A stretch of 64,000 bases of DNA from Dehalococcoidia bacterium (lineage in GTDB: Bacteria; Chloroflexota; Dehalococcoidia; UBA6926), in assembly GCA_965206275.1 (NCBI GenBank), contig OZ242203.1, forward strand, positions 904,474 through 968,473, given 5' to 3'. Under the pieces are notes generated by a model. The model was not told where the DNA came from, made no database searches, and saw only the letters and a program-made list of their open reading frames with translations. Below are positions 6,757 through 64,000 of the stretch, piece after piece; within the stretch, counting starts at the first letter, position 1; each line of letters begins with the position of its first letter. Made by a program: the position numbers and the translations under genes.

Positions 6757-6772
6757 CGGCAACTGGCATACC

Positions 6773-26487: not shown

Positions 26488-26777
26488 TTGGGTTCGCCGT
26501 GCTCGCCATAGAGGGAGTCGAGAAGCTCCTGTGAGGAGGGGGCGGGGCGCAGATGCGGCGCAAGCCGGCGATGCATGTCGGCAATTTCCTTGCGTCGTTC
26601 CGCTTTCCAGCGCAGCCAACCTTCAAGGGAGCGGTCTACTTCCGCGAGCCGTTCTCGTTCCCGTTCCAAGCGCTCCTGGAGGGCGATGGTGATGGCCTGC
26701 GTTTTGTTTTCGTTGGTCAGGGCCGCGAGTTCTTCGGCGAGTCGGTTGGTTTCGGGGTTCTTGATGTTCAGGCTCAT
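26484..26777 (-). CDS. vapB: type II antitoxin VapB (ribbon-helix-helix-like)
   Basis: 97-aa charged protein immediately upstream of the PIN gene, with a 4-nt overlap. Confidence 0.7.
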   Translation of the reverse strand: MSLNIKNPETNRLAEELAALTNENKTQAITIALQERLERERERLAEVDRSLEGWLRWKAERRKEIADMHRRLAPHLRPAPSSQELLDSLYGEHGEPK

Positions 26778-27118: not shown

Positions 27119-27147
27119 AATGCGCCTAGTCGGTGGGGAGTGTGGTT

Positions 27148-32760: not shown

Positions 32761-32884
32761 GTCTGCTCCAGCCATGAGTGGCATTGGGTTAACTGGGCGA
32801 CTACCTCCGAGGATAGCAGATGCGATGAGCTGCGGCTTGCGGCGGATTGAGCGGAGCAGCGGCTACAGAGTTGGGTTGGGTATT

Positions 32885-34940: not shown

Positions 34941-35141
34941 GATTTAGTTTGCGGCATCAGATTGGCGGTGTCCCTTAGAGTAAGCGTATACGCGGTTGGC
35001 TGTTGTGGCACGCATCGCGTGTCGACGGGAAAAGTTGCAGTTTTAAACGAAAGTTTACGTGCCCGCCTATTTCCTGTACACTGCGACGAATCCAAAAACT
35101 GGAGGGGTAAACCCCGCCCGGAGGGACTGACACCGTGGGGG

Positions 35142-38386: not shown

Positions 38387-38498
38387 CACTGAGATAATTG
38401 AGATTTCGTTGAACAAGGAGGACTGTGTATGTGACCAACCGGAAGGAGGCAACCGAGCAGGGTTGCCTGTCGCGCCACTAAAAGACAGGAGGGAAAGA

Positions 38499-39503
38499 AT
38501 GAAGAAACTGAGAAAGGCCTTGTTTGGTATCTCGCTGGCAATGCTGCTGACTATCGGCCTCGCGGCAGGTCTGGCATGTGAACAGGCGGAAGACGACGCG
38601 GCCGAAACTGATGAGAGGGGCACCCTCTATCTCGTCGACCAGGATTGGAACGGCCAGCTTGTCATGACGGCCGTGGCACAGATCCTATTGGAGCAAGAGA
38701 TGGGCCTCGACGTCGCGACGAAGTTCGCGCCCGCCGATTCGGTGCCGTTGTTCATCGGGCTCGAAAATGGTGACTTCCACTTCGTTTGCTGCAACTGGCC
38801 GTCATACAGCGCTGACCTGCTTGATGAGTACGTCGACGCTGACGAAGCCACGGTGGACCGCCTGGGTTCGGTCGGCATTCTTGGCACGGGCGGCTGGTAT
38901 GTGCCCTCCTACGTCATCAATGGCGACCCGGATCGCGGAATTGAGCCCGTGGCTCCCAACCTCCGCACGGTTGACGACATGAACCAGTACAAGGACATCT
39001 TTGCCACGAGCGATACGGCCCCAAGCGGCCGGGTGCTGGAGTTCACTCCGGCATGGGACACACGGCCTGAGGAACGCATGGAGGCATTCGGCGTTGACTT
39101 CGTTCCGATCTACGCCGGATCCGAGGGCGCGGCGCTGGCTGAGGTGGACGCTGCCTTCCAGAGAGGCGACCCGGTTATCACGTACCTGTGGGAGCCGCAC
39201 TGGGCGCATGCCAAGTATGACCTCGTCCGCATTGAGATGCCGGAGTGGACCACAGATTGCTATCCGGACGGCGAGAGCTTTGACTGCGGCTACCCAAGCG
39301 ATCCCGTTGCCAAACTGATTTGGCCCGGTCTTCAAGAGGAGTTCCCGGAGGCTTACGAGTTCCTCTCCAACTTCGAGATGACCAACGCACAGCAGAACGA
39401 GATTGTGCTGAATCTGACTGAGAACGACCTGCCGGTGCGGGCGGCCGCACAGGAGTGGGTTGACGCCAACGAGTCAGTGTGGAGGGCCTGGATTCCATCG
39501 TAA
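38499..39503 (+). CDS. proX: glycine betaine ABC transporter substrate-binding lipoprotein (ProX/OpuAC)
   Basis: ATG at 38499 with AGGAGGGAAAGA SD. Lipobox LAAGLAC. Mature domain LYLVDQDWNGQ... is typical of OpuAC/ProX. Confidence 0.82.
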   Translation: MKKLRKALFGISLAMLLTIGLAAGLACEQAEDDAAETDERGTLYLVDQDWNGQLVMTAVAQILLEQEMGLDVATKFAPADSVPLFIGLENGDFHFVCCNWPSYSADLLDEYVDADEATVDRLGSVGILGTGGWYVPSYVINGDPDRGIEPVAPNLRTVDDMNQYKDIFATSDTAPSGRVLEFTPAWDTRPEERMEAFGVDFVPIYAGSEGAALAEVDAAFQRGDPVITYLWEPHWAHAKYDLVRIEMPEWTTDCYPDGESFDCGYPSDPVAKLIWPGLQEEFPEAYEFLSNFEMTNAQQNEIVLNLTENDLPVRAAAQEWVDANESVWRAWIPS

Positions 39504-41502: not shown

Positions 41503-44500
41503 CTATTCGCGTTCTTCTGAATAGGTAGCGCTTCGTCCGTCTAAACTGTGACCCGCCGCGTAATGCCTGTTCCTGCGTTTCCGTATAACCCTGATGGCAA
41601 TTGCTATCAGCACTGCCAGCAACAGCAGCAACCACCAGGGCAGCGGAGTAAGCCACGACAACGGGAGCGCCATTGACGCGGGGGAGGCTGCTGAACCCGA
41701 ATCGCTTACGCCCGTCGACCCGCTCATAGACTGCGGGAAGCCGCCCGCCAACTCCGGCACGGGAGGAGTCGCCGTCGGCGCCACGCCGGACGTCATCCCT
41801 GAATCGCGCCCAGGTCCCATACCCGGACTGCCGGATTCCGTCTGCCTCTCGTACCCAGCCCCCGTCCGGGACTCGTAGCCAGGCCAAGCCCCCGGCACGA
41901 GAGTGGTTATCGGCTCCGGTGTGGGCGTGTCTTCGGGTTCAGGTGTAGACGTATCCTCCGGTTCAGGCGTGGATGTTGACTCCGGCGTGGGCGCGGGTGT
42001 CGGTTCCGGTGTGGGCGCGGGTGTCGGTTCCGGTGTGGGATCGGACGGTGGTTCCGGTGTGGGCGCGGGTGTCGGTTCCGGTGTGGGCACGGGTGTCGGC
42101 TCCGGTGTGGGTTCGGGTGTCGGTTCCGGTGTGGGCGCGGGTGTCGGTTCCGGTGTGGGCGCGGGTGTCGGTTCCGGTGTGGGATCCGACGGTGGTTCCG
42201 GTGTGGGTTCGGGCGTCGGCTCTGGTGTTGGATCGGACGGCGGCGGCGGTGGTGTCGGCGGAACAGGGCTGCCGGGCGTATCGTCGTTCGTGTCTGTGAT
42301 GGTGGTGGTTACCGATGCCGTGCCGATAGTGGGCGCGGGGCCTCCACCGCCTTGAGGATTAGAGACGGTGACGGTGAAGGTCTCGCCCGTGCCCTCGACG
42401 ACGGTGTCCTCGGTGGTGCTCACGGTGAACGTCTGCGACCCAGCCGCCGTGCTTGTGAAGGTCAGCGTGCCGGAGGCCGCCGCGTAGTCGGAGCCTGCTG
42501 TCGCCGTGCCGTCGGACGTGGCGTAGCTCACTGTCAGGGCTGCCGTGGGCGTGACGCCGGACGGGGAGAGGGAGACGGTGTACGTGGCGGAATCGCCCTC
42601 GTTCACGGATGAGGGGCCGCTGATGTTGACGGTAATCGGGTCGCTCCCGGCGATGGTGGCGGTGGCGGCGGAGGACCCGCTCTTGAGAAAGACCTGGGAT
42701 GACAGCGTCGAGGTGATTGTTCCGAGGGTGACGGTGAAGGTTTCCAGCCCCTCCGACAAGTTGTCGTCAATGACAGGGATAGTGATGGTCTGTGTGGAAC
42801 CCTCCGCGCTGTTGGCGCTGAAGGTCACGGTGCCGGACGCTCCTGTGTAGTCCGATGTCCCGGCCGTCCCGGCCGTGGCGGACCAGGCTACCTGCACTTC
42901 CGCCGCCACCTGCCTGGAGAGGGTGACGGTGAATACCGCGTCTCCGCCCTCGGAGACTGGGGACGTGGGGCCAGATATGCTCAGTTCCGCCCCGTCCACT
43001 CGCTCACTGTTAGAGTGATCCGTCAGCGTGATCTCGGCCGAATTGACTGTCAGGTCTACCGTGGTGGTACCGGAGACGGTGATAGTCTCATCGCCCTCCA
43101 CCACATCGTCGTTCGTCGGTGTGATCGTTAGCGTCCCGGTCGCACTGCCGGAATTCGCCGGGATGGTGATGCTGGTCAAGGTTGTCGTGACCGTGTAATC
43201 CGTGTCCTTAGTGGCGGTGCCTGAGAGAGTCCCGATGGTGATTACGGTGTCAGACGACCGAGTACTGCCCTGCAGCGTGGCGGTGACGGTAACTTCAGTG
43301 GCATCATCGTCTTCCCGAATGCCGGATGGGCTTACGCTGAGAACCACATCCGGCGGGTCGTCATCATCCGTGATAGTGGTAGTGACGGAGGCCGTGCCGA
43401 TAGTGGGCGCGGCTCCGCCACCACCTGTTGGGTTGGAGATACTGACGGTGAATGTCTCATCCAATTCGTCGATGGTGTCCTGCTTCGTTTCGACGGTGAA
43501 AGTCTGCGCGCCGGGGGCGGCATTGGTGAAGGTCAGCGTGCTGGACTTGGCAGTGTAGTCCGTTCCGACGGTCGCCGTGCCGTTGGAGGTGGCATAGGAG
43601 ACGGTGAGGTCTGCCGTGGGTGTGACGCCTGACGGCGAGAGGGAGACGGTGTATACAGTCGTCGTGTCGCCTTCGTCCACGGTGGACGGGCCGCTGATGT
43701 TGATAGTGATTGGGTCGCTTTCGGCGATGGTGGCAGTGGCACTGGCGGCAGTGCTCTTGACCCACACGGTGTCTGCCTGGTCACCGGAATCTGCGCCCAA
43801 TGCGACGCTGAAGGTTTCAGAGCCCTCCGACAGGTCGTCGTCGGTGACCGCAATCGTGATGGTCTGCGTGGCCTCGGCTGCGGAATTGGCGTCGAAGGTA
43901 ACGGAGCCGGACGTGGCGCCCAGGTCCGCTGCTACCGCTGTGTCTGCGGCAATGGACCAGGCGACCGTGACATCCGCGGTTACGGTCCTGGACAGAGTGA
44001 CGGTGAAGGTTGCGTTGGAGCCCTCCGTTACCTCTGCCGACGGCCCGGTGATGCTCAAGTACGCCGAGTCGTTGTCGTTGATGGTGATGAGCGCGGAGGC
44101 AATGGTCAGGGTTCCAGAGCTGCCGCCGACGATGATGGTCTCGTCGCCCTCGGATATGTCGTCGTCAATGAGGGTGAGGGTTAGGGTGCCAGAGCCGCTG
44201 GACTGATTTGCCGGTATGGTCACGCTGGCCTGCTCTGGGCCGGTGTAATCCGCGCTATCCGCGGTTCCTCCCAGGGTTAGGCTAACGGTAGTTGCTGTGT
44301 TCGGCGGTGTCTCCACGTCATGGGTGGCCGTTACGGTGAAGGTGGTCTCGCCGTTGTCTTCGTTCACGGAGACCGGGGAGACGGTTAGCTGGATGTCTAT
44401 ATCCGCACTATTGCCGGGGGGGTCAGATGGGGACAAGAGTAGCGCATCGTTGTCCCTGATGTCAGTGGTGACGGTAGGGGATGTGCCGAGGGCGGGGGTG

Positions 44501-53500: not shown

Positions 53501-56500
53501 GTGGACGGGCCGGTGATGTTGACGGTGATCGGGTCGCTTGCGGCGATGGTGGCGGTGGCGCTGGAGTCGTCGGTCTTCAGTGTCACCTGGGTCGCGGGCA
53601 GCGTTGTCGTGATGGTTCCGAGGGTGACGGTGAACGACTCAGTGCCCTCCGAGAGCATGTCATCCGTCACCATGATGGTGATGGTCTGGGTGGACTCGGT
53701 TGCGGAGTTGGCTGGGAAGGTCACGGTGCCGGAGGTTGTGCCTAAATCTGCTGCTGCTGCCGCGTCCGTGCCGAGCGGCGCGCTCCATGCTACCTGCACT
53801 TCCTTGGACACCGCTGCCGACAGTGTGACGGTGAAGGTGGCGTTACTACCCTCGGAGACGTTGGATGCGGGACCGGAGATGGAAATCTCGGCTGTGTCCT
53901 TGTCGTCCGTCGGAGTGGTGGTCTTGTTGTCGTCGGTGAGGGTGACGGTGGCATCACTTACATCTAGGCTCACCGTGGTAGTGCCGGGGATGGTGATGGT
54001 CTCATCGCCCTCTACTACGGTGTCGTCCGTGGGCGTGATGGTGAATGTTCCCGTTCCGTTGGTGGAGTTCGCTGAGATGGTGATGCTGGCCAAGCTCGTT
54101 GCCGTGTAGTCGGTGTCCTTGGTGGCGGTGCCAGCCAGGGTTCCGATGGTGACGACGGTGGCGGAAGTGCGGGTGGTGCCGCCGTCTAGGGTGGCGGTGA
54201 CGGTGATCTCAGTCTCGCCGTCGTCCTCGCCGAGAGTGGCCGGATCCACCGAGAGGGTGATGCCCGTTGGCGCGTCGTCATCGTCCGTGATGGTGGTAGT
54301 GACGGTCTTGGACGTACCCAAGCTTGGCGTGGGGCCGCCGCCGCCCGACGGGCCAGAGATGGTGACAGTGAAGGTCTCGCCCGTCCCCTCGTCGATGGTG
54401 TCCACTGTCGTCTGGACGGTGAAGGTCTGCGATCCCGCAGCCGCGTTGGTGAAGGTGAGTGTGCCGGTCTTGGCTGTGTAGTCGGTGCCCGACGTGGCCG
54501 TGCCGCCGGACGCGGCGTAGTTCACGGTGAGGTCTGCTGTGGGGGTGACGCCGGATGGGGAGAGGGAGACGGTGTAGTTGCCCGTCGCGTCACCTTCATC
54601 CACTGACGTGGGGCCAGTGATTGAGATAGTGATGGGGTCGCTGGCGGCGATGGTTGCTGTGGCGGTGGAGTCGTCGGTCTTCAGGGTCACCTGTGTCGAG
54701 GGCAGCGTTGTCGTGATGGTTCCGAGCGTTACAGTAAAGGACTCCGCGCCTTCAGAGAGCATGTCGTCTGTCACGGCGATCGTGATGGTCTGCGTTGAAT
54801 CCGCAGGGGAGTTGGCCGCGAAGGTCACCGTGCCGGAGGTTGATCCCAAGTCGGCCCCCTCCGCAGCGTCGGTGGCCAGCGGCGCGCTCCACGCCACCTG
54901 CACTTGCGACGCTACCGCCGCGTCCAGCGCCACCGTGAAGACAGCGTTCCCGCCCTCTGTTACGTTCTCCGTGGGCCCCGTGATCCTCAGGTCTGCCTTG
55001 TCCTCGTCGTTGGGATCATCGGTGGTGGTGCCATTGTGGTCTTTGAGGGTGATTGTGGCCGAACTGACGGTCAGACCCGTGACGGTGGTGGTTCCGGGGA
55101 TGATTATTGTCTCGTTGCCCTCGACCATCTTGTCGTCCGAGGGGGTGATGGTTAGCGTGCCGCTGCCGCTCATGGAGTTGGCGGGGATGGTGATGCTGGC
55201 CAACACCGTGGCCGTGTAGTCCGTTCCCTTGGTGGCGGAGCCCTTAAGCGTGCCGATGGTGACGACCGTCGCCTCGGTCCTCGTGCCACCGTTGAGAGTG
55301 GCGGTTACCGTCACCGACGTCGCTGCCCCGTCTTCTTCGACGGTGTCGGGGTCGGCGCTCAGTGTGATTCCGCTTAGTGAGTCGTCGTCCGTTATGGTGG
55401 TGGTTACCGACTTTGCCGTGCCCAGGCTGGGCGCGGGCCCACCGCCGCCCGTCGGGCTGTCAAGGGTGACGGTGAACGTTTCGTCGGACTCGTCAATCGT
55501 GTCCTCGGTGGTTTGGACGGTGAAGGTCTTAGCTCCGGCATCTGTAGGCGTGAACGTCAGCGTGCCAGAAGCCGCTTCGTAGTCGTCGCCCTCAGCGGCA
55601 GTGCCATCCGACGTGGAATAATCCACCGTGAGGTCCGCCGTCGGCGTTCCTCCGGACAACGACACCGTATAAACCGTGGTGGCGTCGCCCTCGGCGACGG
55701 TGGACGGGCCGGAGATGGTGACGGTGATGGGGTCGTTCTCTGCGATATACGCGTCCGCGATGAAGGAGCCTGATTTGGGCGCGACGAAGGCGCTGAGAGA
55801 CGAGGTGACAGTCCCCAACTCTAAGGTGAAGTTTTCGAGCGTCTCCGACAGATTGTCGTCAGTCATCGTGACGGTGAAGGTCTGGGTTGCGCCTGCCGAC
55901 GAGCCCGCAGGGAAGGTGACGGAGCCGCCGGCCGGGGAGTAGTCCGCCGCTACGGCGGTGTTCGGCACTGCGGACCAGGTTACGCTCAGTTCTTCAGAGA
56001 TGGCCGCGGACAGGGTGACGGTGAAGGTGGCGCTTGCTCCCTCTGCCACCGGTGCGCTTGGGCCGCTTATGCTCAGGTCCGCATGGCTGGTGTTGAGAAT
56101 CGTGATTGTCGCAGGGAATACCTGCGTACGCCCGAGCGCCGCGCTCAACAGGACGGTTTCGTCCCTCTCCACAACGGCGTCGTTCGTGGGCGTGAAGGTG
56201 AAGGTGGCGATGCCGTAGTCCTCCCCCGCAGGGATGGTCAGCGTTCCGGTGGCCGCGGTGTAGTCGCCGCTGGCGAGGGTGGCCGTGCCGTCGGCCAGCG
56301 ACAGGCCGATCGGCGCGTCAGTCGTAAACGGGTCCATCCCATGCAGCGATGCCGTTACCGTCAGAACGGTGGCGCCAGCGTCCTCCCGCACCCTGTTGGG
56401 GCTCACGGTCAAGGTGATGCCTCTGCGCCCAGAGTCGTCGTCCAGAATAGTGATCTCCGCCGGATGAACCGTGAACGGCATTGCCGTTCCGGTCACCTGA

Positions 56501-59500
56501 AGGGTCTCATTCTCTTCGGATTTGTCGTCGCCCTTGACGTTCACCTTGAGGTTTGCGGACCCGCTCATTTGGCCGGCAGGAATGGTCACCTTCGCCGTGG
56601 CTTTGGCGTAGTCCTCGCTGTTGGCGGTCCCGTCCTCCAGCGACACCGTAACCTCGATTGCGCCCGGCAGCGTCGAGCCGCTATTCAGCGTGGCCGTGAC
56701 CCTAACGTCGGTGGCGGAATCAGAGCTGCCCTCGCGCAGGACCGAGGGGCTGACGCTGAGCGTGATGCTGGGGGGAATTTCGTTGTCCTCGAGGGTGATG
56801 GCAGGCTCGTCCGAGGTTGTGAGACCTCCACCAGCGTGGCTGGTGAAGACGATTGTCTCGTCATCTTCCACGATGTCGTCATCAACCGGCGTGATTGTCA
56901 GCGTCCCGCTGGCGTCTTCCTCCCCGGCGTCGATGGTCAGAACCAGGTAATGGCCGCTGATGGTGTAGTCCTCCGTCGCCACCCTGGTGCCTCTGTCGGA
57001 ATTCGGGAAAACGACAATCTGGACTGCATTGTGGAGGAACCGCTTGTCGCTGTCGTCTATAGTCGCCGTGAACCTGATCTGCGTGGCCCCATCACCCTCG
57101 CCCACCTCGACGGGAGTAGCCGTCAGGGTGTACGAGTCAGGGTATGCCGGATCGTCGGTGAAGCTGTCGGCGATGGTTGTGGTTCTCCCATCCTTGACTA
57201 TCTCGGGGGCCAGGCCTCCGCCGCCCTGGGCGTTGGACAGGGTGACGGTGAAGTCTTCCGTGGGTTCGAATATGGTGTCGGCGAGGGTGCTGACCGTCAC
57301 GGTCTTGGTGGTCTCGGTGGGCGTGAAGGTGAGGGTCTGGTCCACCGCCGTGTAGTCTTCACCGGCGGTAGCCAGGTCCCTGGGGCCACCGGTCTTGAAG
57401 CGCACCGTCACGTTTGTGGTTCGACTGCCTTCCAGCTTGATGACATATGTGGCGTCACTTCCTTCCGTGACCGATGTTGGCGCGGTCTCGAAGGAGATCA
57501 CCGGCGCTTGCGGAGCGGAGTTTGTGAGGGTGATGTCCGTCGTGCTCACGGTGTGACAAATAGCCGTGCCGTAGAGCCGGATGGTCTCGTCACTCTCCGC
57601 CAGCGCGTCATGGACCGGGGTCACCGTGAGGGTTGCCGTGCCGGTGGTCGCGTTGGCGGGGATGGTGATGGTGACGGGCAGCGACGCCGCGTAGTCGTCC
57701 TGGATCTTGGCCGTCCCGGACAGGGACAGCTTCACCACTGTGTCCACGTCCCGGGCGGTTTGGCGAGTCGCCGTCACGGTCACTTCAGTGGCGCCCGCGT
57801 TCTCCGCAATGCTGGACTTGTTGACGCTCAGCGCGATGTTGTTGGTGTATTCCTCAGTGATGGTCAGAACGGCGCGGGCCACTGTTAGGCCGGTAGCCGT
57901 CCCTTCCACCCATATGCTCTCGTCGCTCTCCGGCAGATAATCGTTCACCGGAGTCACGGTGAAGGTTGCCGTTCCGGTGGTGGCGTTGGCCGATATGGTG
58001 ATGGACGTCAGCGACGTCGCCGTGTAGTCCGAGTTCTCGGTGGCCGTGCCGGAGAGGGCGCCGATGGTGACTACGGTTTCTGATGACCGAGCGCCGCCTG
58101 TGAGAGTGGCCGTCACCGTGACAGAGGTGGCGGAGTCGTCCTCCCCAAGGCTCGACGGGTTCACGCTTAACTCGATGGCGTCCCTGTCGTTGTCGGTGAT
58201 TGTCAAAACGACCGGGGCCACTGACAGCCCGGCGGGGGCCGTTGCCTTGAGGAGGATGGTCTCGTCCCCTTCCACCTCGCTGTCGTCAGTCATGGTGAAA
58301 CCCAACGCCTGACGGGTGGAGGCGCTGGTTGCGCCATCCGGGATGGTTATCTGCCATCCCGACCACGTTACGTAATCATTGGGATTGCCCAGCGCACCCG
58401 CTTCGGCCGTGCCTTCCGGAGGCAATACGCCGGTTATCGTGACTTCACCATTCGTGCCGCTGCGGGTCGCCGTAAGGGTCACTCTCGCCGCAACTTCGTT
58501 CTCCCCGATGGTGTATCGGTTCGCGGTCAGGGTGATGTCGTGCTTGTCGTTGTCCTTGATGGTCAGAATGACCGGGGCAACCGTCAGTCCGCCGGTGGCC
58601 TTTCCGTTGATGATGATGGTCTCATCGCCTTCTTCGAAATCATCGTCAGTCATGGTGAAACCCAACGCCTGACGGGTGGACGCGCTGCTTGCGCCGTCCG
58701 GGATAGTTATCGACCAGCGCGACCAGATTACGTAATCCTGCGAATCGCCCAGGGCGCCCGGAGTGGCAGTCCCACCCGGAGGGAAATCGCCGGTTATCGT
58801 AACTGCGCCCTCCGTGCCAGTCCGAGCCGCCGTAATAGTGATCCTGGCCGCGATTTCATGCTCTCCGATGGTGTAGCGATTTGCGGTCAGCGTGATGTCC
58901 TTGTTGGCGTCGAGGATGACCGTGGTTACCTTGTCTACGCCTATGCTTGGCGGGGACGCCCCGCCCCCTTGCAGATTGGATATGCCGAAGGTGAAGACCT
59001 CTCCAGAGTCTGTCTCCGTGTCCGCGAGGATCGGCACGGTTATCGTCTTCGGGCCGGCGTTGGTGGGGGTGAACGTCACTGTTCCGGATTGAGCGGTGTA
59101 GTCAGTCCCGGCCACGGCGGCGGGCCCCCGATAGGGGTTCGACCCATCAGACGTGGCGTACTCCACAGTCAAATCAGCCTGAGGGACAGATCCCGGCGGG
59201 GACAGGGAGATGGTGTAGGTCGCGGAGTTGCGCTCCATCACGATCGCGGGCCCGCTGACGCTGACGGTTCGGGCTAAGGGGGCCGAGTCCGTGATGGTGA
59301 TGTCCGTCGGGCTGACTGTCCGGGCACCCGATTGGCCTGAAACTGTAATCGTCTCGTCTCCCTCCGGCATGGTGTCATTAACGGGGGTGATGGTGAGCGT
59401 TCCGTAGGCGGTGGTCTGTCCCTTGGGGATGGTGATGCTGTTGAGGGTAGTCGCCGTGTAATCGGCCGGGTTGGCAGCGGCGCCGCCCAGCGTGAGGTCC

Positions 59501-62500
59501 ACCACCGTGTCCGTAGGTCGCGCCGCGCTCATGGTGGCCGTGACCGTTACCTCGGTTGCGCCGGCGTCCTCAGTAATAGTGTCGGGGCTGACGGAGAGGG
59601 CGATGGTTTCCGGCTCGCCTATGGTGAGCACGGCATCGGTGACGGTTGCGCCGGGCACATCTGCCGACCAGACTATCGTTTCGTTCGGATCATCAAGGTC
59701 GTCGGAGCAAATGTGGAAGGTCATGCTCGTGGATGCGCTGGACTCGCCCGGCGCGATGCGCACATCCGAGGGAAGGACACGTATAAAGTAGTCGGTGTTC
59801 CGTTCAGGGCGGCAGGATCCACCTCCCCCCTGTGTGTAGTCAGTGTTGTCTGTGGCGGTTTGGCTGCTCCAGCCCCCGTGCCAATCGGTCGCATGATTGC
59901 CGACTGTACCGTCCCGAGTCGCCGTGAGGGTGACCTGGATGTCACTCCCTTCCTGAGTATATTCAGGGTCGAATGAGAGGGTGACGTGGGCGAGATCGTT
60001 CTCTGCCAGGTCTATGGTGTCCGGGAAGACCACAAAGCCAGTGAGGCTGCCCTCGACGACGATGGTCTCCTTACCCTCATAGACGGAGTCGTCGACGGGT
60101 GTGATGCTCAAAGTGGCCGAGCCGGTGGCGGTTGACGCCGGGATGGTCACATTGGCGACGGTGGCGGTGTAGTCATCCGTGCGGGTCGCCGTTCCGCCAA
60201 GGGAGACGGTCACGGTCGTGTCTTCGTCGAAGGTGGCGCAGCAGTCCAGGTTCACCTTGACGGTGAAGTCCGTGGCTGCGCCACCTTCCCCTATACTGTC
60301 GGGCGTCACCGTGAGAGTTGCGCCGAGCAGGGGCCCAGCGGCGTCCACGATGCCGGTGGTTGCGATGCTCGTGTCGAGGGTGGGCGTGAGTCCGCCGCCG
60401 CCCGACGGGCTGGAGAGGAGCAGGCGGAAGTACTCGACGGGCTCGGTGATGGCGTCGGTCAGGACGGGTACGCGCACCCGTTTGCTGGTCTCGCCGGGGA
60501 CGAAGGTCAGCGTGCCGGACTGAGGGGTGTAGTCGTCGCCCGACGTGGCTGAGCGCTGTGGAGAGAGCGCATCGTAGGTCTGGTAGTTCACCGTGAGGTT
60601 GGCGGTGGGCGCGCGGCTCAGCGAGACCGTGAAGTCGGCGTTCCCGCCCTCTGTGACCGTCTCCGGGCCGCTGACGGATACAGACATAGCCTGATCGCGG
60701 ATGGTGGTGGTGGCGGTGGCGGTGCCCAGCGCCGCATCAGTTATCTGGGTGAATCCGATGAAGTAATACTCCGGGTCGGAGAGGGTCAGGCTGAAGGTCT
60801 CGTTGGACTCGTCCACGTTATCCGCCGTGATCGGCACCAGGATCTCCCAGTCTGAGTACCGCACTTGGTATTCATCGGCAGTGGCGGGGGCGGGATAGGT
60901 GGTGACGGGCATCTCCAGCGTGCCGGAGACGGCGGTGTAGTCCGTGCCCGCCGTGGCCGTGCCGTCCGAAGTGGTGTAGCTGACCCTTGCGCCCCAGGCG
61001 GGGTGAAGGTCGGCGTTGCGCTTCACGACGAAACGGGCGTTGGTCCCCTCATCCACGAACTCGGGGCCTTCGACGGAGAAAGTCAGAGGGGTGGAAGTGA
61101 TGGTGGTGGTGACCGACGAGTCGCCTAAGACCACCGGCGTTGTGCCGCCGCCGCGGAGGTTGGAGAGGGAGAGCGTGAAGGTCTCATCCGTGTCTCCGGT
61201 CGAGCCGCTTACCATATAGACGAAGACGGTGTACCAGGTCACACCGAAGTCATTGACGTTGTGCTGAGTGTCCTTGCTTGGGCCGATGGTGAGGGTATCG
61301 GACACGTTCACATAGTCGCCGGTCTGGCCGCTCTCACAGCTATTGACGCCGCCATCGCACCCGGTGGCGGTCCCATCCGAGGAGGTGACGTCCACCTGGA
61401 TGTCGGCGTTGACCGGGCCGGAGAGGAAGACCTGGTAGACGGCGAAATCGGTGTTCCTGACGTGGGGGAATGCCCGAGGACCCATCAGGGTGACCGTCAC
61501 GACCTGTCCGGTGGCGATAGTGGCGTCAGCACTCGACTTGGTAGAGTCCACGGACACTTTGGAGGCAAGGTCGCCGGTGACGCTGCCGAGCGTGACGGTG
61601 AAGGTCTCCTGCTGCTCTTCCGTCCCATCGTCGGCGATGGCCATGGTGATGGTCTTGGTTGCGCCGGCGGCGGAGCCCGCAGGGAAGATGACGCTGCCGG
61701 AATCCGGGGAGTAGTCATCGGCGGAGGCGGCGACCGTGGCCGTCGAGCCTGCCGACCATGCAACGACGACCTGGGAAGCGACCGCGTGGGACAGGGTGAC
61801 GGTGAACTCGGCGCTGCTTCCCTCGCTTATCACACCAGTCGGGCCGGCGATGCCCACGGTTGCAGTGTCGTCATCGGTGATGGTGATGGTTGCGGGAGTC
61901 ACGTCCAGCCCGGCGGACGCGCCCTGCAGCAGAATGGTCTCGTCGCCCTCGACAATCTGATCGTTTACCGGCGTCACGGTGAAGCTGCCCGTTCCGCTGG
62001 ACTCGGTTGCGGTGATGGTGATGTTGCCCAGCGTGGTGGCGGTATAGTCGCCGGTGCTTCCCTTCGTGGCGGTTCCGCCGAGTGTGACCACGACGGTGGC
62101 ATTCTGTGCCAGTGTGCCGCCCTCCAGCGTGGCGGTCACGTTGACCGTTCCGGCCGCGTCAGCCTCACCGAAGGATGTTTTGTCGACGCTGAGGACAACG
62201 GAAGAGGGTAGGCCGTCATCGTCCACGATGGTGGTATTGACGAACTGGGTGGTGCTCATTAGAGGGGTGGGACCGCCGCCGCCCTGGGGGTTGGACATAC
62301 GGAACTCGAAGTAGGTGTTGGCCGCGTCGTCGGTGTTTTCGGTGGTGGCGACGGTGACGGTGGCGGAGGTATCCCCGGCGGCGATGGTGACAGTGCCGGT
62401 GGCGGCGGTGTAGTCAGTACCCGCCACTGCTGTCCTGTCCGTGGTGGTGTAGTCTACCGTGATGGCCTCGGTCGATGTGGCGCTGTCGAGCGTGAAGGTA

Positions 62501-64000
62501 TAGGTGGCCGAGTCGCCCTCCGTGACCCGTTCATCGCCGGAAATGCTCACGGTTACAGCGTCGTTTTCCGCGATGTCAGCGTTGGCCGTTCCCTTGCCGG
62601 ACTCTATAGACACCTGTGAGGCGGTCTTGCCGGTGATAGCGCCGAGGGCCACGGAGAATCGCTCCGTTGCCTCGGGAACGAGGTCATCCGTGATCGGGAT
62701 GGTGATGGTCTGGGTGGCGTTGTCGGGCGATCCGGCGGGGAAGGTGACGGTGCCGGACGAACCGACGAAATCGCCTGTCGATGCCGTGCCATTCGACGCG
62801 CTCCAGGCCACGGTGAGGGCCCTGGTTATTCCCCGGCTGAGCGAAACCGTGAACTCGGCGTCCTCGCCCTCCTCCACCTCTCCGGGCGGGCCGGTGATGG
62901 AAAGGACGGCGTGGTCATCGTCCTCCAGGGTGAGGATGACCGGTTCCACCCAATCCGTCGGGGTTGTCGTCACCAGATTGATGACCCAAGTCGGGTAGAT
63001 CTCTATCTCCTCGTCGCCTTCGACCAGGAAGTCCTCGATGCCGGTGAAATCGAACGTGACGGATGCGCCCTTCTGGCCGGCCGGAATTGTCAGCGCCTGT
63101 GAGTTGGTGTTGACCGTGTAGTCGCTGTTCTCACGCGCGTCATGGTCTATGTCAACCCTGATCTGTGGAATGGTGGTTGCGGAACTCCTGACCGGGCCGG
63201 TCAGCGTGCCGGTGACGGTCACGCGGCCTCCGCTGGTAGGCGTCGAGGACTCGGTGATGCTGTCGGGCGACAGGCTGAGCACGATGTCGGAAATTTGCTC
63301 CAGTGTCACGGTATAGGTGGGCGACTCAGACCCGGCGCGGTCCAGCACTTTAAAGGTGAAGGACCCACCGATGTCGACGCGGAAACCGTTGGGCTGCGGA
63401 ACGTATTTGAGCTTGCCCAGATCGTCAACGGGAACCTCCTGGCCCGCCGTGGCTGCTGTGCCATCGAAACGCAATACACCCGTTGTCTTGCCGTATATGT
63501 CAGTGTGGCCGGGCAGCGTGACGATCTTGACCTTGCTGATCGCATCGCCCGCGTCCACGTCGGTGAACGGGAAGTCGCTCGCGCTGAACGTCGCGCCGGT
63601 CTGGCGGGAGACCTTCTTGGTGAAATTCGCCGAGGTGGGAGCGGTGTTGGCCAACGTGGTCGCGGTCTGGGTGGTTGGCGGCCCCGGCTGTCTGTCCTCA
63701 TTGAGGGCCAGGACCCTGACGGTGTAGGTGGTGCTGGGAGTCAGGCCGGTCAGCGTTGTGGTGGTCCCGGATGTGATGGCTGCTGCAATGACGGCTGGCT
63801 CAGAATCCGCCTCGTAGCCCACCACGTACCGCTCGATGGGCGAGGAGCCGGTGGTGTCAGGGGGAGTTACGGTCACCAGCATCGTGGTGGCCGTAATCTC
63901 CGAGAGGGAGAAGGTCACGCTTGGCGCAGCGCCTTCCAGGACATTGGTGACTGTGATGTTGACGGTTACGGAATCGTCCACGGTTGTGTCAGCGGTTCCG
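41503..64000 (-). CDS. giant surface protein (>7,490 aa within the window; N-terminus outside the window). It has FN3-like and >25 Calx-beta-like domains, a PT/PEPT linker and a C-terminal TM anchor.
   Basis: Single uninterrupted minus-strand ORF to the window edge. Recurrent Calx-beta motifs (DDxxSEgtEtFTVTLs, VAWSA...TATAGSDY). C-terminus ...PEPTPAPTPE(n)...LPWWLLLLLAVLIAIAIRVIRKRRNRHY then a short tail. Confidence 0.9.
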   Translation of the reverse strand, partial: GTADTTVDDSVTVNITVTNVLEGAAPSVTFSLSEITATTMLVTVTPPDTTGSSPIERYVVGYEADSEPAVIAAAITSGTTTTLTGLTPSTTYTVRVLALNEDRQPGPPTTQTATTLANTAPTSANFTKKVSRQTGATFSASDFPFTDVDAGDAISKVKIVTLPGHTDIYGKTTGVLRFDGTAATAGQEVPVDDLGKLKYVPQPNGFRVDIGGSFTFKVLDRAGSESPTYTVTLEQISDIVLSLSPDSITESSTPTSGGRVTVTGTLTGPVRSSATTIPQIRVDIDHDARENSDYTVNTNSQALTIPAGQKGASVTFDFTGIEDFLVEGDEEIEIYPTWVINLVTTTPTDWVEPVILTLEDDDHAVLSITGPPGEVEEGEDAEFTVSLSRGITRALTVAWSASNGTASTGDFVGSSGTVTFPAGSPDNATQTITIPITDDLVPEATERFSVALGAITGKTASQVSIESGKGTANADIAENDAVTVSISGDERVTEGDSATYTFTLDSATSTEAITVDYTTTDRTAVAGTDYTAATGTVTIAAGDTSATVTVATTENTDDAANTYFEFRMSNPQGGGGPTPLMSTTQFVNTTIVDDDGLPSSVVLSVDKTSFGEADAAGTVNVTATLEGGTLAQNATVVVTLGGTATKGSTGDYTATTLGNITITATESSGTGSFTVTPVNDQIVEGDETILLQGASAGLDVTPATITITDDDTATVGIAGPTGVISEGSSAEFTVTLSHAVASQVVVAWSAGSTATVAASADDYSPDSGSVIFPAGSAAGATKTITMAIADDGTEEQQETFTVTLGSVTGDLASKVSVDSTKSSADATIATGQVVTVTLMGPRAFPHVRNTDFAVYQVFLSGPVNADIQVDVTSSDGTATGCDGGVNSCESGQTGDYVNVSDTLTIGPSKDTQHNVNDFGVTWYTVFVYMVSGSTGDTDETFTLSLSNLRGGGTTPVVLGDSSVTTTITSTPLTFSVEGPEFVDEGTNARFVVKRNADLHPAWGARVSYTTSDGTATAGTDYTAVSGTLEMPVTTYPAPATADEYQVRYSDWEILVPITADNVDESNETFSLTLSDPEYYFIGFTQITDAALGTATATTTIRDQAMSVSVSGPETVTEGGNADFTVSLSRAPTANLTVNYQTYDALSPQRSATSGDDYTPQSGTLTFVPGETSKRVRVPVLTDAITEPVEYFRLLLSSPSGGGGLTPTLDTSIATTGIVDAAGPLLGATLTVTPDSIGEGGAATDFTVKVNLDCCATFDEDTTVTVSLGGTATRTDDYTATVANVTIPASTATGSATLSITPVDDSVYEGKETIVVEGSLTGFVVFPDTIDLAENDLAHVTLSFDPEYTQEGSDIQVTLTATRDGTVGNHATDWHGGWSSQTATDNTDYTQGGGGSCRPERNTDYFIRVLPSDVRIAPGESSASTSMTFHICSDDLDDPNETIVWSADVPGATVTDAVLTIGEPETIALSVSPDTITEDAGATEVTVTATMSAARPTDTVVDLTLGGAAANPADYTATTLNSITIPKGQTTAYGTLTITPVNDTMPEGDETITVSGQSGARTVSPTDITITDSAPLARTVSVSGPAIVMERNSATYTISLSPPGSVPQADLTVEYATSDGSNPYRGPAAVAGTDYTAQSGTVTFTPTNAGPKTITVPILADTETDSGEVFTFGISNLQGGGASPPSIGVDKVTTVILDANKDITLTANRYTIGEHEIAARITITAARTGTEGAVTITGDFPPGGTATPGALGDSQDYVIWSRWSITIPDGASSASTRQALGFTMTDDDFEEGDETIIINGKATGGLTVAPVILTIKDNDKHDITLTANRYTIGENEVAARVTLTATRSGTNGEVTITGVLPPEGTAEAGALGNPNDYVTWSGWQITIPDGATSASTRQALGFTMTDDSEVEGDETILLKATAPAGLSVAPVVLTITDNDRDAIELSVNPSSLGEDDSATSVTVTATLTGGARSSETVVTIGALSGTATENSDYTATSLTSITISANATTGTATFTVTPVNDYLPESDESIWVEGTATGLTVARAVLTITEEYTNNIALSVNKSSIAENAGATEVTVTATRQTARDVDTVVKLSLSGTAKIQDDYAASLPVTITIPANATTGTATLTVTPVHDALAESDETIRLYGTAICHTVSTTDITLTNSAPQAPVISFETAPTSVTEGSDATYVIKLEGSRTTNVTVRFKTGGPRDLATAGEDYTAVDQTLTFTPTETTKTVTVSTLADTIFEPTEDFTVTLSNAQGGGGLAPEIVKDGRTTTIADSFTDDPAYPDSYTLTATPVEVGEGDGATQIRFTATIDDSDKRFLHNAVQIVVFPNSDRGTRVATEDYTISGHYLVLTIDAGEEDASGTLTITPVDDDIVEDDETIVFTSHAGGGLTTSDEPAITLEDNEIPPSITLSVSPSVLREGSSDSATDVRVTATLNSGSTLPGAIEVTVSLEDGTANSEDYAKATAKVTIPAGQMSGSANLKVNVKGDDKSEENETLQVTGTAMPFTVHPAEITILDDDSGRRGITLTVSPNRVREDAGATVLTVTASLHGMDPFTTDAPIGLSLADGTATLASGDYTAATGTLTIPAGEDYGIATFTFTPTNDAVVERDETVLLSAALGRTQVFPATITILNTSHADLSISGPSAPVAEGASATFTVTLSAAISEELSVTWSAVPNTAVAADYSPAGGSVTFPAGSSAGATQTFTVTMTDDNLSETLENFTLELGTVTSSLSAFVAPKSGSFIADAYIAENDPITVTISGPSTVAEGDATTVYTVSLSGGTPTADLTVDYSTSDGTAAEGDDYEAASGTLTFTPTDAGAKTFTVQTTEDTIDESDETFTVTLDSPTGGGGPAPSLGTAKSVTTTITDDDSLSGITLSADPDTVEEDGAATSVTVTATLNGGTRTEATVVTIGTLKGSATKGTDYTATVLASITIPANSMSGSGTLTITPSDDKMVEGNETIIIPGTTTVTGLTVSSATITLKDHNGTTTDDPNDEDKADLRITGPTENVTEGGNAVFTVALDAAVASQVQVAWSAPLATDAAEGADLGSTSGTVTFAANSPADSTQTITIAVTDDMLSEGAESFTVTLGTITTTLPSTQVTLKTDDSTATATIAASDPITISITGPTSVDEGDATGNYTVSLSPSGVTPTADLTVNYAASGGTATSGTDYTAKTGTLTFTNAAAGSQTFTVQTTVDTIDEGTGETFTVTISGPSGGGGPTPSLGTSKTVTTTITDDDDAPTGITLSVDPATLGEDDGETEITVTATLDGGTTRTSATVVTIGTLAGTATKDTDYTATSLASITISANSTNGTGTFTITPTDDTVVEGDETITIPGTTTVSLDVSDATVTLTDDNKTTTPTDDKDTAEISISGPASNVSEGSNATFTVTLSAAVSKEVQVAWSAPLGTDAAAAADLGTTSGTVTFPANSATESTQTITIMVTDDMLSEGTESFTVTLGTITTTLPATQVTLKTDDSSATATIAASDPITVNITGPSTVDEGDATSDYTVSLSPDGVTPTADLTVSYATANGTATAGSDYTAKSGTLTFTSTAAEAQTFTVQTTVDTIDEGTGETFTVTISNATGGGGTTSLGTSKTVTTTITDDDDAPTGITLSVSPDSLGEDDAATTVTITATLEGGSTRPTSTIVSIGTLSGIATKDTDYTATSLASITIPANSSSGTGTFTITPTDDTVVEGDETITIPGTTTVSGLNVTSATLTLTDDDKSTTTPGDKDTAEISISGPASNISEGSNATFTITLSAAIAKSVTVAWTATGNTDDYSPDSGTVTFAANSAAGATQDVTIAVTDDNLSETAESFTVTLGTITSTLSSQLSLKNSASSAQATIAESDPITISISGPTSVDEGDTTANYTVSLSPSGVTPTADLTVSYTTANGTATVGADYTAKSGTLTFTSTAAGAQTFTVQTTDDSIDEGTGETFTVTISSPSGGGGPAPSFGTAKSVTTTITDDDAAPTGITLSASPNSLGEDDAATSVTITATLNGSTLPSDTVVTISTLTGTTTKDADYTATSLASITIPANSATGTGTIKITPTDDSVVEGDETIIIPGTTTVSGLNVSDATITLTDDDKSTTPGDDKDSAELSITGPTSNVAEGSNATFTVTLSAAIAKSVTVAWTATGNTDDYSPDSGTVTFAANSAAGATQTINITATDDMLSEGAESFTVTLGTITSTLSSHISLKNGASSATATIAASDPITISISGPTSVDEGDATSNYTVSISGGVPSADLTVSYGTSNGTATAGSDYTAKSGTLTFSSTAAGPQTFTVQTKEDSIDEGTGETFTVTISGQSGGGATPTLGTASVTTTITDDDDAPTGITLSANPSTLGEDDNATTITVTATLQGGTTRTSATIVTIGTLTGTATKDTDYTATALASITIPANSTSGTGSITITPTDDAVVEGDETITIPGTTTVTGLSVTSATITLTDDNKTTTTPTDDTDTADLSISGPSSNVSEGGNATFTFTLSAAISKSVTVAWTATGNTDDYSPDSGTVTFAANSAAGATQSITIAVTDDMLSETAESFTVTLGTITSTLSSQISLKSGASSATATIAASDPITINISGPSSADEGDATTAYTVSLSPSGVKPTADLTVSYTTANGTATAGNDYTAKSGTLTFSSTAAGPQTFTVQTTGDTTDESDETFTVTISSPSGGGATPTLGTSSVATTITDDDDAPTGITLSASPSSLGEDDTATEITITATLDGGTTRTSATVVTIGTLAGTATKDTDYTATSLASITIPANSTSGTGTITITPTDDSVVEGDETITIPGSTTTQVGLTVTSATITLTDDDKSTTTPTDDKDTAEISITGPASNISEGSDATFTVTLSAAISKSVTVAWTATGNTDDYSPDSGTVTFAANSAAGATQTITITATDDMLSETAESFTVTLGTITSDLSSQISLKNGASSATATIAASDPITISISGPTSVDEGDATTAYTVSLSPSGVTPTADLTVSYGTSNSTATAGSDYTAKSGTLTFTNTAAGSQTFTVQTTGDTIDEGTGETFTVTISGQSGGGGTTSLGTSSVTTTITDDDDAPTGITLSTSPNSLGEDDAATEITVTATLKGGTTRTSATVVTIGALKGTATKDTDYTATSLTTITIPANSTTGTGSITITPTDDAVVEGNETIIISGTTTVSLDVSAATVTLTDDDKGTTTPGDKDSAELSITGPASNVSEGSDATFTVTLSKAVAAQVQVAWSAPLAADAAEGADLSATSGTVTFAANSAAGATQSITITVTDDMLSETAESFTVTLGTITSSLASQLSLKSGASSATATIAASDPITISITGPTSVDEGDATTAYTVSLSPAGVKPTADLTVSYNTSNGTATAGSDYTAKTGTLTFTNTAAGPQTFTIQTTEDTIDEGTGETFTVTISSPSGGGGPAPSLGTSKSVTTTITDDDDAPTGITLTANPNSLGEDDSATSITVTATLNGDTTRTSATVVTIGTLSGTATKDTDYTATTLTSITIPANTASSSQTFTITLTDDAVVEGDETITIPGATTTQVGLTVTSATITLTDDNKTTTTPTDDKDSAEVSISGPTSNVAEGSSASFTVTLSQAVDAEVQVAWSAPLGTDAAEGSDLSATSGTVTFTANSAAGATQSITITATDDMLSETAETFTVTLGAITSTLSSQISLKNGASSAQATIAASDPITINVSGPSTVDEGDATTAYTVSLSPTGVTPTADLTVSYNTSNGSATAGTDYTAKSGTLTFTNTAAGSQTITVQTTEDTIDEGTGETFTVTISSPSGGGGPAPSLGTSSVSTTITDDDDAPSGITLSASPSSLGEDDSATSITVTATLNGGTTRTSATVVTIGTLSGTATKDTDYTTTSLTSITIPANSTSGTGTITITPRDDSVVEGDETITLPGTTTVSLTVTSATITLTDDNKTTTTPTDDKDSAEVSISGPTSNVAEGSSASFTVTLSQAVDAEVQVAWSAPLSTDTAESADLSATTGTVTFTANSAAGATQSITITVTDDILSETAESFTVTLGTITSTLSSQISLKNGASSATATIAASDPITINISGPSTVDEGDATTAYTVSLSPSGVIPTTNLTVSYATSNGTATAGTDYTAKSGTLTFTNAAAGSQTFTVQTTEDTIDERTGETFTVTISSPSGGGGPAPSLGTSSVSTTITDDDDAPTGITLTANPSTLGEDDSATSITVTATLDGDSTLPTATIVTIGTLAGSATKDTDYTATSLTRITIPANSSTGTGTLTITPTDDAVVEGDETITIPGTTTVSLSVTSATVTLTDDNKTTTTPTDDKDSAEISITGPASNVSEGSNATFTVTLSGAIAKSVTVAWTATGNTDDYSPDSGTVTFAANSAAGATQTINITATDDMLSEGAESFTVTLGTITSDLSSQVSLKSGASSATATIAASDPITISVTGPTEEVTEGDPATYTVSLSPAGVTPTADLTVNYATADGTAVTGSDYTAASGTLTFTQTDAGDKTFTVQTTEDILAENTENFTASISNPTGGGDPTPALGTSPTVTTDIRDNDALLLSPSDPPGNSADIDIQLTVSPVSVNEDNGETTFTVTATHDVETPPNTATTVSLTLGGTADSADYTGPEQASVTIPANQSSGSGTLTLTLIDDDISEGDETIIVGGSSGTLTIASALITINDNDSAYLSITGPSAEVTEGSNATFTVTLSRTVTADVTVAWSIAADTAVAADLGATSGSVTFDANSAAEATQTITIAVTDDDLSEGSETFSVALGADSGDQADTVWVKSTAASATATIAESDPITINISGPSTVDEGDTTTVYTVSLSPSGVTPTADLTVSYATSNGTATVGTDYTAKSSTLTFTNAAPGAQTFTVETKQDTIDELDETFTVSISNPTGGGGAAPTIGTASVTTTITDDDDPPDVVLSVSPSGIREDDDATEVTVTATLQGSTRSSDTVITIGTLSGTATKDTDYTVTTTLTSITIPANSGSATGTLTITPTNDDVVEGDETITVSGTTTVDLTVNSAEITLTDHSNSERVDGAELSISGPTSPVSEGGDAVFTVTLSRQVAAEVQVAWSATAGTAGTSDYTGASGTVTFSANSAEGSTQTITIPVIDDNLSEGLETFTVTLGTITSTLSSQVFLKSGSSAATATIAGSDPITVNISGPSSVNEGDSATYTVSLSPSGVTPTAALTVSYATSDGTATAGSDYAAASGTLTFTSTAAGSQTFTVSTTEDTVVEGTGETFTVTVSNPQGGGGPAPTIGTASVTTTITDTNDDTPGSPVPPTPPPPPSDPTPEPTPEPTPEPPSDPTPEPTPAPTPEPTPAPTPEPTPEPTPEPTPVPTPEPTPAPTPEPPSDPTPEPTPAPTPEPTPAPTPESTSTPEPEDTSTPEPEDTPTPEPITTLVPGAWPGYESRTGAGYERQTESGSPGMGPGRDSGMTSGVAPTATPPVPELAGGFPQSMSGSTGVSDSGSAASPASMALPLSWLTPLPWWLLLLLAVLIAIAIRVIRKRRNRHYAAGHSLDGRSATYSEERE
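41950..42250. repeat. 24-bp tandem repeat (cggttccggtgtgggcgcgggtgt, about 12 copies) encoding the (PTPEPTPA)n linker of the giant protein
   Basis: Direct tandem copies with minor variants, seen in sequence. Confidence 0.85.
42300..55600. repeat. about 12 near-identical tandem DNA repeats of ~1.08-1.11 kb inside the giant gene (each encodes a ~365-aa three-Calx-beta module)
   Basis: Spurious plus-strand ORFs with near-identical translations recur at 45368, 46469, 47576, 48677, 49766, 50849, 51932, 53012 and 54113 (period ~1.1 kb). The minus-strand protein shows the same periodicity. Confidence 0.85.

Follow-up and report, generated by a model that had tools for sequence, protein, structure and literature searches.

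Ebh and Embp of staphylococci are giant, rod-shaped proteins anchored in the membrane by their C-terminus, and ADGRV1/VLGR1 is one of the eukaryotic proteins that carry arrays of Calx-beta domains. Here we describe a giant Calx-beta gene in a stretch of 64,000 nucleotides from a Dehalococcoidia bacterium (contig OZ242203.1 of assembly GCA_965206275.1, positions 904,474 to 968,473), referred to below as the window. The gene lies on the minus strand, fills the last 22.5 kb of the window and continues beyond its edge. An initial annotation of this DNA had read the product as a giant Calx-beta surface protein with a fibronectin type III (FN3) domain, a Pro/Thr-rich (PT) linker, a single C-terminal transmembrane (TM) anchor and a basic tail, and this core reading holds. 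Among giant adhesins of a known kind the protein is a striking case, and it does not represent a new kind of system.

With Ebh and Embp it shares a signal peptide (seen here in orthologues), dozens of tandem modules, a presumed rod shape, anchoring by a C-terminal TM helix and a positively charged tail in place of LPxTG, and the status of by far the largest gene in a small genome. In contrast, the modules of Ebh and Embp are alpha-helical FIVAR/GA units with no homology to those described here, Ca2+ has no role in them, and their phylum and habitat are different.

The RTX adhesins MpIBP (PMC5550230), SiiE (PMC6272769) and LapA are described as combining a Ca2+-rigidified immunoglobulin-like (Ig-like) extender, distal ligand-binding domains and block-duplicated repeats, features that all have a probable counterpart in the present protein. 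Their C-terminal RTX signal directs them into type I secretion, their N-terminus retains them at the outer membrane and their extender consists of BIg domains, whereas the topology and export predicted here are the opposite, with Sec export, a C-terminal TM anchor, no RTX and an extender of Calx-beta domains. Closely comparable in size are the Mobiluncus mulieris adhesin, reported to have 7,651 residues and 51 Ig-like repeats (PMC10619420), and the Giant1-5 proteins reported from Apilactobacillus kunkeei (PMC12863079). Common to these and the present case are a monoderm bacterium that lives with a host (probably so in the present case), a gene with 7-8 thousand codons for some 50 beta-sandwich domains in tandem, and the position of largest protein in a small genome. 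The domains of the Mobiluncus adhesin are stabilised by intramolecular covalent cross-links, whereas those described here, with only 7 Cys in the part within the window, would presumably be stabilised by Ca2+. Far larger bacterial genes have been reported (10.1101/2023.11.21.568195).

Among eukaryotes, Calx-beta arrays include the paired calcium-binding domains (CBD1-CBD2) of the NCX/CALX exchangers and the sponge aggregation factors (MAFp4, AqAFA-E). The present modules belong to the same domain family by hidden Markov model (HMM) and by predicted fold, and carry the acidic residues of the Ca2+ site. They differ in being bacterial and encoded without introns, in their number (58), and in an identity to CALX of about 20-30%, and no sign of a recent transfer from a host is seen. 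Demosponge aggregation factors are described as Ca2+-dependent adhesion molecules (proteoglycans) with 2-15 tandem Calx-beta domains per protein, for which Ca2+ is needed for stability and adhesiveness (PMC5400394, PMC11670116), and their family is said to be marked by a Wreath domain together with Calx-beta (PMC5400394).

Extent and domain organization of the giant gene

The frame running from position 63999 to a stop codon at 41503 comprises 7,498 codons without interruption, has no start within the window and is open at its edge, just as the initial annotation had it. A chance origin of a 22.5-kb stop-free frame in DNA of 63% G+C is impossible, and the open reading frame (ORF) is genuine. 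Its full product is probably about 8,800 amino acids (aa) long, since the orthologous locus L003 (Chloroflexota RHO3_bin_79, the closest genome match, 85% identical) has 1,290 residues ahead of the point aligned to residue 1 of the window part. The window part has a predicted isoelectric point of 4.05, with Thr making up 21% and Ser 11% of its residues and only 7 Cys. The gene accounts for at least 1.2% of the 1.87-Mb genome by the 22.5 kb seen, or 1.4% at an estimated length of about 26 kb, and such an investment in one gene implies strong selection for the role of the fibre that it would encode. A scan of the 3' end of the gene found no promoter-like or terminator-like site. The segments up to the last Calx-beta module are as follows.

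41503..63999, minus strand: giant ORF, 7,498 codons and a stop; its 5' end is past the window, with about 1,300 codons missing as judged from orthologue extents
63928..63999, minus strand: putative C-terminal end of a cadherin domain that starts outside the window; homology to the orthologous piece P0129, in which a Cadherin match ends at aa 1338, just ahead of the last fn3
63670..63927, minus strand: fibronectin type III domain, aa 25-110; Pfam PF00041, E 5.3e-13, 49.4 bits against a cutoff of 25
63301..63669, minus strand: beta-sandwich domain with a DFPFTD motif, aa 111-233; AlphaFold2 model with a predicted local distance difference test (pLDDT) score of 77, weak Foldseek similarity
55738..63300, minus strand: 21 non-identical Calx-beta modules, aa 234-2754; Pfam and own-module HMM, mostly collinear with orthologues
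42646..55737, minus strand: 12 super-repeats, U0-U11, of three modules each (types B, C, A); about 358-370 aa and 1.07-1.11 kb per unit
42289..42645, minus strand: 58th and last Calx-beta module (type B only); own-module HMM

Pfam Calx-beta (PF03160) recognised 45 stretches of the protein (18 + 27, with 615.6 and 851.6 bits against a cutoff of 27, E 1e-188 and 1e-261). When an HMM built from the protein's own modules was used to delimit the units, 58 abutting modules were found at aa 234-7237, with zero unassigned residues between them. The HMM scan that the initial annotation had proposed thus recovered both the dozens of Calx-beta-like modules and the FN3-like domain near the window edge of which it had spoken. 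No Wreath, VWA or VWD match turned up in the Pfam scans, in which neither a Wreath model nor an aggregation factor sequence was among the queries.

AlphaFold2 modelling of one triplet, with the 12 units supplied as the alignment, gave three beta-sandwiches (pLDDT 88.4, predicted template modelling score 0.71). In a Foldseek search with this model, CBD structures of NCX1/CALX rank first. The best match is 3ead_B, with a template modelling score of 0.89 and a root-mean-square deviation (rmsd) of 1.8 Å; for the single domains 3ead_B, 3e9t and 2dpk, the target-normalised scores are 0.81-0.89 and rmsd values 1.7-2.6 Å. The modelled fold is that of the seven-stranded beta-sandwich of NCX/CALX Ca2+-binding domains.

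In a profile-free search of solved structures, the module segment DDTTDESDETF aligns with DDDVFEEDECF of Drosophila CALX CBD1, and the module end TITDDD with MILDDD of the same domain. The acidic columns E16, D54, D82, E86 and E89 are retained in 56-58 of the 58 modules, while D81 and D118 are kept in about 70-76% of them. We take these positions to correspond to the Ca2+ ligands of NCX/CALX CBD1, in line with established knowledge of the family. Nearly every module would accordingly possess a predicted Ca2+ site, as judged from the acidic residues at binding positions. A few residues are described as critical for Ca2+ binding in Calx-beta domains (PMC5400394). A run of 58 consecutive modules with such residues offers a natural system for the study of Ca2+-dependent stiffening of Calx-beta arrays.

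The beta-sandwich at aa 111-233 has no Pfam match at E<=1, and its Foldseek similarity to cadherin, FimH and SrpA domains is weak (template modelling score of about 0.45-0.49). The same domain (63301-63669; loci L008-L025) matches large proteins at 30-43% identity across distant genomes, including those of Burkholderiales, Verrucomicrobiota, Planktothrix, Endozoicomonas, Paenibacillus and one archaeon. It seems to represent an adhesin domain that is widespread and not yet curated.

Divergence of the super-repeats

Lag analysis and motif spacing revealed a period of 1,074-1,110 nt over about 42.6-55.7 kb. Ghost ORFs on the plus strand show a matching period; those noted in the initial annotation, every 1080-1107 bp from 45.3 to 55.6 kb, agree with the 1.08-1.11 kb seen here. 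The array is composed of 12 full units (U0-U11) followed by one extra module, each unit being a Calx-beta triplet of about 1.09 kb, which is also consistent with the previously claimed 12 or so consecutive super-repeats of about 365 aa.

Near-identity of the repeats at the DNA level, as had been claimed, is in contrast not what the comparison shows. Units U1-U9 are pairwise 75-83% identical in DNA and 76-88% in protein. DNA identity falls to about 61% for U10 and 70% for U11 (60-72% as the range for both), and U0 and U5 are 68% identical as proteins. The longest exact stretch common to two units is 86 nt (units compared: U1-U12). Among U1-U9, the Nei-Gojobori method gave a mean of 0.70 synonymous substitutions per synonymous site (dS) and 0.14 nonsynonymous substitutions per nonsynonymous site (dN), with dN/dS of 0.20. 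Because of this DNA divergence, the high dS and the low dN/dS, the super-repeats are read as old, diverged duplicates under purifying selection.

The third module of the unit exists in two loop variants, whose blockwise arrangement in the array is suggestive of block duplication or recombination. Compared with one relative, N-terminal modules pair one-to-one (66-83% identity), while modules of the super-repeats match several positions equally well. Six modules (12-17; aa 1575-2279) are without a partner in one relative. The unmatched and the multiply matching modules indicate that the array changes by module gain and loss.

C-terminal linker, membrane helix and basic tail

The last Calx-beta module is followed by a tail of 261 residues, in which a linker, a spacer, a TM helix and a basic segment succeed one another.

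41914..42288, minus strand: Pro/Thr/Glu-rich linker, (PTPEPTPA)n; 24-bp (72-bp) microsatellite at 41981-42228, 10.3 copies; similar linker in the relative L028
41671..41913, minus strand: Gly/Ser/Pro/Thr-rich spacer, by composition, presumably disordered; equivalent in L028
41632..41670, minus strand: conserved juxtamembrane motif ALPLSWLTPLPWW; counterpart in P0177 IPLSWLTPFPWW
41593..41637, minus strand: single TM helix WWLLLLLAVLIAIAI, by Kyte-Doolittle hydropathy; TM assigned to aa 7455-7469
41506..41592, minus strand: basic tail RVIRKRRNRHY..., 29 aa, predicted to be cytoplasmic; tail of P0177 also basic, with a different sequence

Of these parts, the (PTPEPTPA)n linker with its 24-bp microsatellite, the Gly/Ser stretch, one TM helix and the basic tail had been pointed out before and were found again. 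Hydropathy values above 1.6 form a single stretch at aa 7447-7475 (approximate limits, peak 2.46), directly ahead of RVIRKRRNR; beside it there is one isolated 19-residue segment at aa 6622 (1.69). One TM helix close to the C-terminus, with a positively charged segment after it, characterises this protein as well as P0177 and L028.

Exhaustive search with the 133-aa tail among 1.84 billion representatives disclosed a single significant match, the protein P0177 (E 1.3e-7), while a word-indexed search gave no match and missed P0177. On its own contig, P0177 is encoded downstream of Calx-beta fragments and a PT linker. Its segment IPLSWLTPFPWWLLLLIAILIAITIRVTRRLLKR corresponds to ALPLSWLTPLPWWLLLLLAVLIAIAIRVIRKRRNR of the giant protein. 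By this comparison, a second lineage has kept the juxtamembrane motif, the helix and the basic nature of the tail, but not its sequence. A degenerate DNA pattern for WLTP[LF]PWWLLL had zero matches in JGI metagenome contigs, and a regular expression for the motif, run over 605 kb of sequence, found it only in the window and in L028.

Neither LPxTG nor LAxTG nor NPxTG occurs in the tail, and an LPxTG-type expression found nothing in any ORF of the window. This agrees with the earlier statement that LPxTG and LAxTG are missing and that the sortase at 6.8 kb is hence unlikely to process the protein, which is not an LPxTG sortase substrate. An NCBIfam scan of the last 399 aa (E<=0.01) returned only Calx-type and choice_anch_V matches, below cutoff, and no sorting-signal model. 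PEP strings are numerous in the linker and not located beside the TM helix, so the tail does not have the form of a PEP-CTERM/PGF-CTERM signal for an exosortase or archaeosortase.

A divergent sortase is encoded elsewhere in the window (6728-7738, plus strand), with an N-terminal TM segment, a long Pro/Thr/Ser linker and a Pfam Sortase domain at aa 193-331. It scores 31-44 bits against class-specific NCBIfam cutoffs of 140-166. The beginning of its gene overlaps with the 3' end of a gene for an AhpC/TSA thioredoxin-like protein (6145-6756, plus strand).

N-terminal region and neighbours in orthologues

At locus L001, the piece matching the first residues of the window part is preceded by P0129, a piece of 1,429 aa that starts with MVVLALVAILSTLIPPPVLAQA. 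An in-frame GTG located 22 codons upstream adds an n-region, RRRPSR, to this signal peptide. In P0129, PT linkers lie between four FN3-like domains, which are followed by Cadherin, He_PIG, PKD and fn3 domains. The same set of domains is present in L003, where an unbroken frame of 3,395 aa extends from a signal-type start to the contig end. Orthologues with 75-87% identity begin with a typical n-h-c Sec-type signal, so that the signal peptide which had been suggested as worth looking for is seen in them, the gene's own 5' end being outside the window. From these comparisons we infer that some 1,300 residues precede the window part, comprising a Sec signal peptide and a head of FN3, cadherin, He_PIG and PKD domains.

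The pieces of the gene extend over at least 31 kb in one relative, and along the relative ctg518814l the gene could be followed as far as the C-terminal PT linker. What lies upstream of the gene in relatives is either a hybrid sensor kinase gene or Amt/P-II genes. The hybrid protein (about 800-890 aa; GAF-PAS-HisKA-HATPase-REC-Trans_reg_C) lies directly upstream in three relatives (L002 3225-5648, L003 3121-5802 and L026 1897-4296), and is a candidate for a dedicated regulator of the giant gene.

All matches in the protein search are at most about 1,750 aa long, and the collections have no entry for the giant protein as such. With the last 70 bases of the window, an exact search of species-representative genomes gave no match, and the adjoining glyoxalase had no exact counterpart among the records either. 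In short-read and low-coverage assemblies, the gene is found as contig-end fragments or as strings of pieces of 100-1,700 aa. Because of this fragmentation, published counts of 'eukaryotic-like' Calx-beta, fn3 and cadherin genes in metagenome-assembled genomes (MAGs) of symbionts are probably distorted. Giant ORFs and their termini appear to be under-represented in the protein collections searched.

Other Calx-beta or FN3 surface proteins, with frames of 1,800-4,400 aa, were observed in related Dehalococcoidia chromosomes (2.0-5.1 Mb) and in a Binatia MAG (L004-L007, L017 and L021). Their presence in several MAGs indicates that large beta-sandwich surface proteins are recurrent there.

Proposed topology and alternative explanations

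The anatomy deduced for the full-length protein (signal peptide, head, long extender, envelope-spanning linker and membrane anchor) would be that of a fibrillar adhesin. Of the readings considered, we favour, with somewhat more confidence than doubt, a Sec-exported, C-terminally anchored and Ca2+-stiffened stalk with an adhesive head. In this model, a giant type I membrane protein would form a long surface fibre. Export by Sec would proceed with the N-terminus first, the C-terminal helix would serve as the anchor and the basic tail would stay in the cytoplasm, while the PT and Gly/Ser segments would cross the cell envelope. Ca2+, abundant in sea water, would bind at module junctions and stiffen the Calx-beta array into a rod, the length of which we estimate at a few hundred nanometres from about 4 nm per Ig-like domain. 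The 12 three-module super-repeats would act as a length-setting extender, and the cadherin/FN3 head at the distal tip might contact the matrix or cells of a host (probably a sponge), or other bacteria.

Several points weigh against this model. The N-terminus of the gene is outside the window, and the signal peptide and head are taken from orthologues that are 75-87% identical. In several relatives the gene is broken by frameshifts, which may reflect errors of sequencing in contigs of low coverage or a true decay of the gene. The sponge as a partner is deduced from the names of related MAGs. Finally, a passive coat or spacer would fit an identical anatomy. Such a coat would be an acidic, Thr/Ser-rich brush holding off phages, phagocytes or neighbours, or a substitute for a surface layer, with no specific ligand. 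The extreme composition of the protein speaks for it, as do the single fold that 58 of the 60 domains within the window share and the occurrence of several large Calx-beta proteins (3,300-4,400 aa) in related Dehalococcoidia genomes; avoidance of phagocytosis by the host has also been linked to eukaryote-like proteins of sponge symbionts. We nevertheless consider a coat rather unlikely, although it is the most serious competitor of the adhesive stalk, given that a distinct distal cadherin/FN3/He_PIG head in orthologues follows the layout of fibrillar adhesins, and that another large secreted protein, possibly forming a surface layer, is encoded at 12377-15907.

The remaining explanations concern anchoring, export and the assembly itself. 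Covalent linkage of the fibre to the envelope would result if the sortase encoded at 6728-7738 cleaved the LPLSW...PWW motif ahead of the hydrophobic stretch and basic tail, as a non-canonical substrate. The tripartite layout of motif, hydrophobic segment and basic residues, the conservation of the motif between two lineages and the presence of a sortase gene in the window are in accord with this, and PLSWLTPxPWW-TM-basic tail could, as a smaller possibility, be an undescribed C-terminal sorting signal. This sortase is, however, far under every class-specific cutoff (43.9 bits against 166) and its gene is 34 kb distant; the established motifs and any NCBIfam sorting-signal match are missing from the tail, the basic cluster has about 20 more residues after it, an uncommon feature in sortase signals, and the only two known instances of the motif belong to this one orthologue group. 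Processing by sortase is therefore regarded as very improbable. Least credible of all, and close to negligible, is a type I-secreted RTX or BAP-like adhesin, for which the initial annotation had suggested looking for secretion partners. The giant size, the acidic tandem Ig-like repeats and the probable Ca2+ binding do give a general resemblance. Still, the GGxGxD nonapeptide is absent from all 7,498 residues, the C-terminus is a TM helix with a basic tail instead of a secretion signal, and orthologues begin with a Sec signal peptide. Moreover, no gene for a type I ATP-binding cassette (ABC) exporter, a membrane-fusion protein or a TolC-like protein was detected among the window ORFs scanned with Pfam (those beyond the first ~6 kb): the genes downstream of the giant one encode a glyoxalase and then an OpuA-type betaine importer, the only ABC system nearby. 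An artefact of assembly, in which the array was collapsed, expanded or chimeric and the ORF as given does not exist, had been a concern of the initial annotation with regard to copy number. It is suggested by the 13 kb of tandem 1.09-kb units and by the fragmentation of relatives in other assemblies. Collapse or expansion is unlikely, because the units differ in 17-40% of their DNA, with at most 86 identical bases in common, and the source contig is 1.87 Mb long; the concern is weakened accordingly. Furthermore, the frame is open over every junction, and dN/dS of 0.2 shows each unit evolving as coding sequence, so we give an artefact only a slight chance, between those of sortase processing and of type I secretion.

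Possible association with sponges

Proteins encoded by neighbouring housekeeping genes cluster with Dehalococcoidia/Chloroflexota MAG proteins, whose contigs measure about 1.7-2.0 Mb. The source bacterium is likely a sponge symbiont, because the name RHO3_bin_79 suggests Rhopaloeides odorabile, and contigs of fragmented relatives, from long-read metagenome assemblies, have metaMDBG-style names as in sponge holobiont projects. Enrichment in sponge symbionts has been reported for eukaryotic-like proteins that contain Calx-beta, fn3 and cadherin domains (PMC8163846, PMC9531527, PMC11706023). The giant protein has the same domains, with PF03160 and PF00041 in the window and PF00028 in orthologues, and its nearest relatives are in Chloroflexota/Dehalococcoidia MAGs. 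What these studies give are domain counts in fragmented MAGs, and no single intact 58-module gene is described there (PMC8163846, PMC9531527, PMC11706023). The gene provides a concrete and testable candidate for the attachment of Dehalococcoidia/Chloroflexota inside a host, probably a sponge.

Since aggregation factors are themselves tandem Calx-beta proteins dependent on Ca2+, mimicry of the host is an attractive idea. The fibre as a molecular mimic or partner of the Calx-beta adhesion machinery of the host is, by analogy with these factors, an improbable scenario in our estimation, less so than sortase processing and more so than a coat. If true, the 58 modules and the cadherin/FN3 head would plug into the networks of aggregation factor or matrix, holding the cell in the mesohyl, where it might be read as 'self' and not as food.

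Other genes in the window

The large secreted protein weighed above in connection with a coat (12377-15907, minus strand) is an acidic protein of 1,176 aa, with an N-terminal signal or anchor segment, no C-terminal TM helix and no Pfam/NCBIfam match. We regard it as a candidate for a surface-layer protein, or for some other component of the envelope, in this Dehalococcoidia lineage.

Scans of the 64-kb window for tRNA genes and Rfam families gave no match. Housekeeping genes are accompanied by those for a PIN-domain protein (26101-26619, minus strand), a protein with an HNH_2 endonuclease domain (31840-32784, minus strand) and an AlkZ-like DNA glycosylase (10155-11333, plus strand). The Rho factor (16305-18080, minus strand; 591 aa) has an N-terminal extension of about 220 residues ahead of its RNA-binding domain. 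A phosphoenolpyruvate carboxylase is encoded at 20459-21934 (minus strand; Pfam PEPcase_2, PF14010, E 8e-170), which we take to be the archaeal-type enzyme, here in a bacterial genome.

An 810-aa protein encoded at 27133-29565 (plus strand) comprises two stretches of CoA-transferase family III, as a fused duplicate. The ORF at 3389-4741 (minus strand) shares a 90%-identity cluster with a protein named CaiB-like acyl-CoA transferase. These CoA-transferase genes and the OpuA betaine transporter (34962-39503) jointly hint at carnitine or betaine metabolism.

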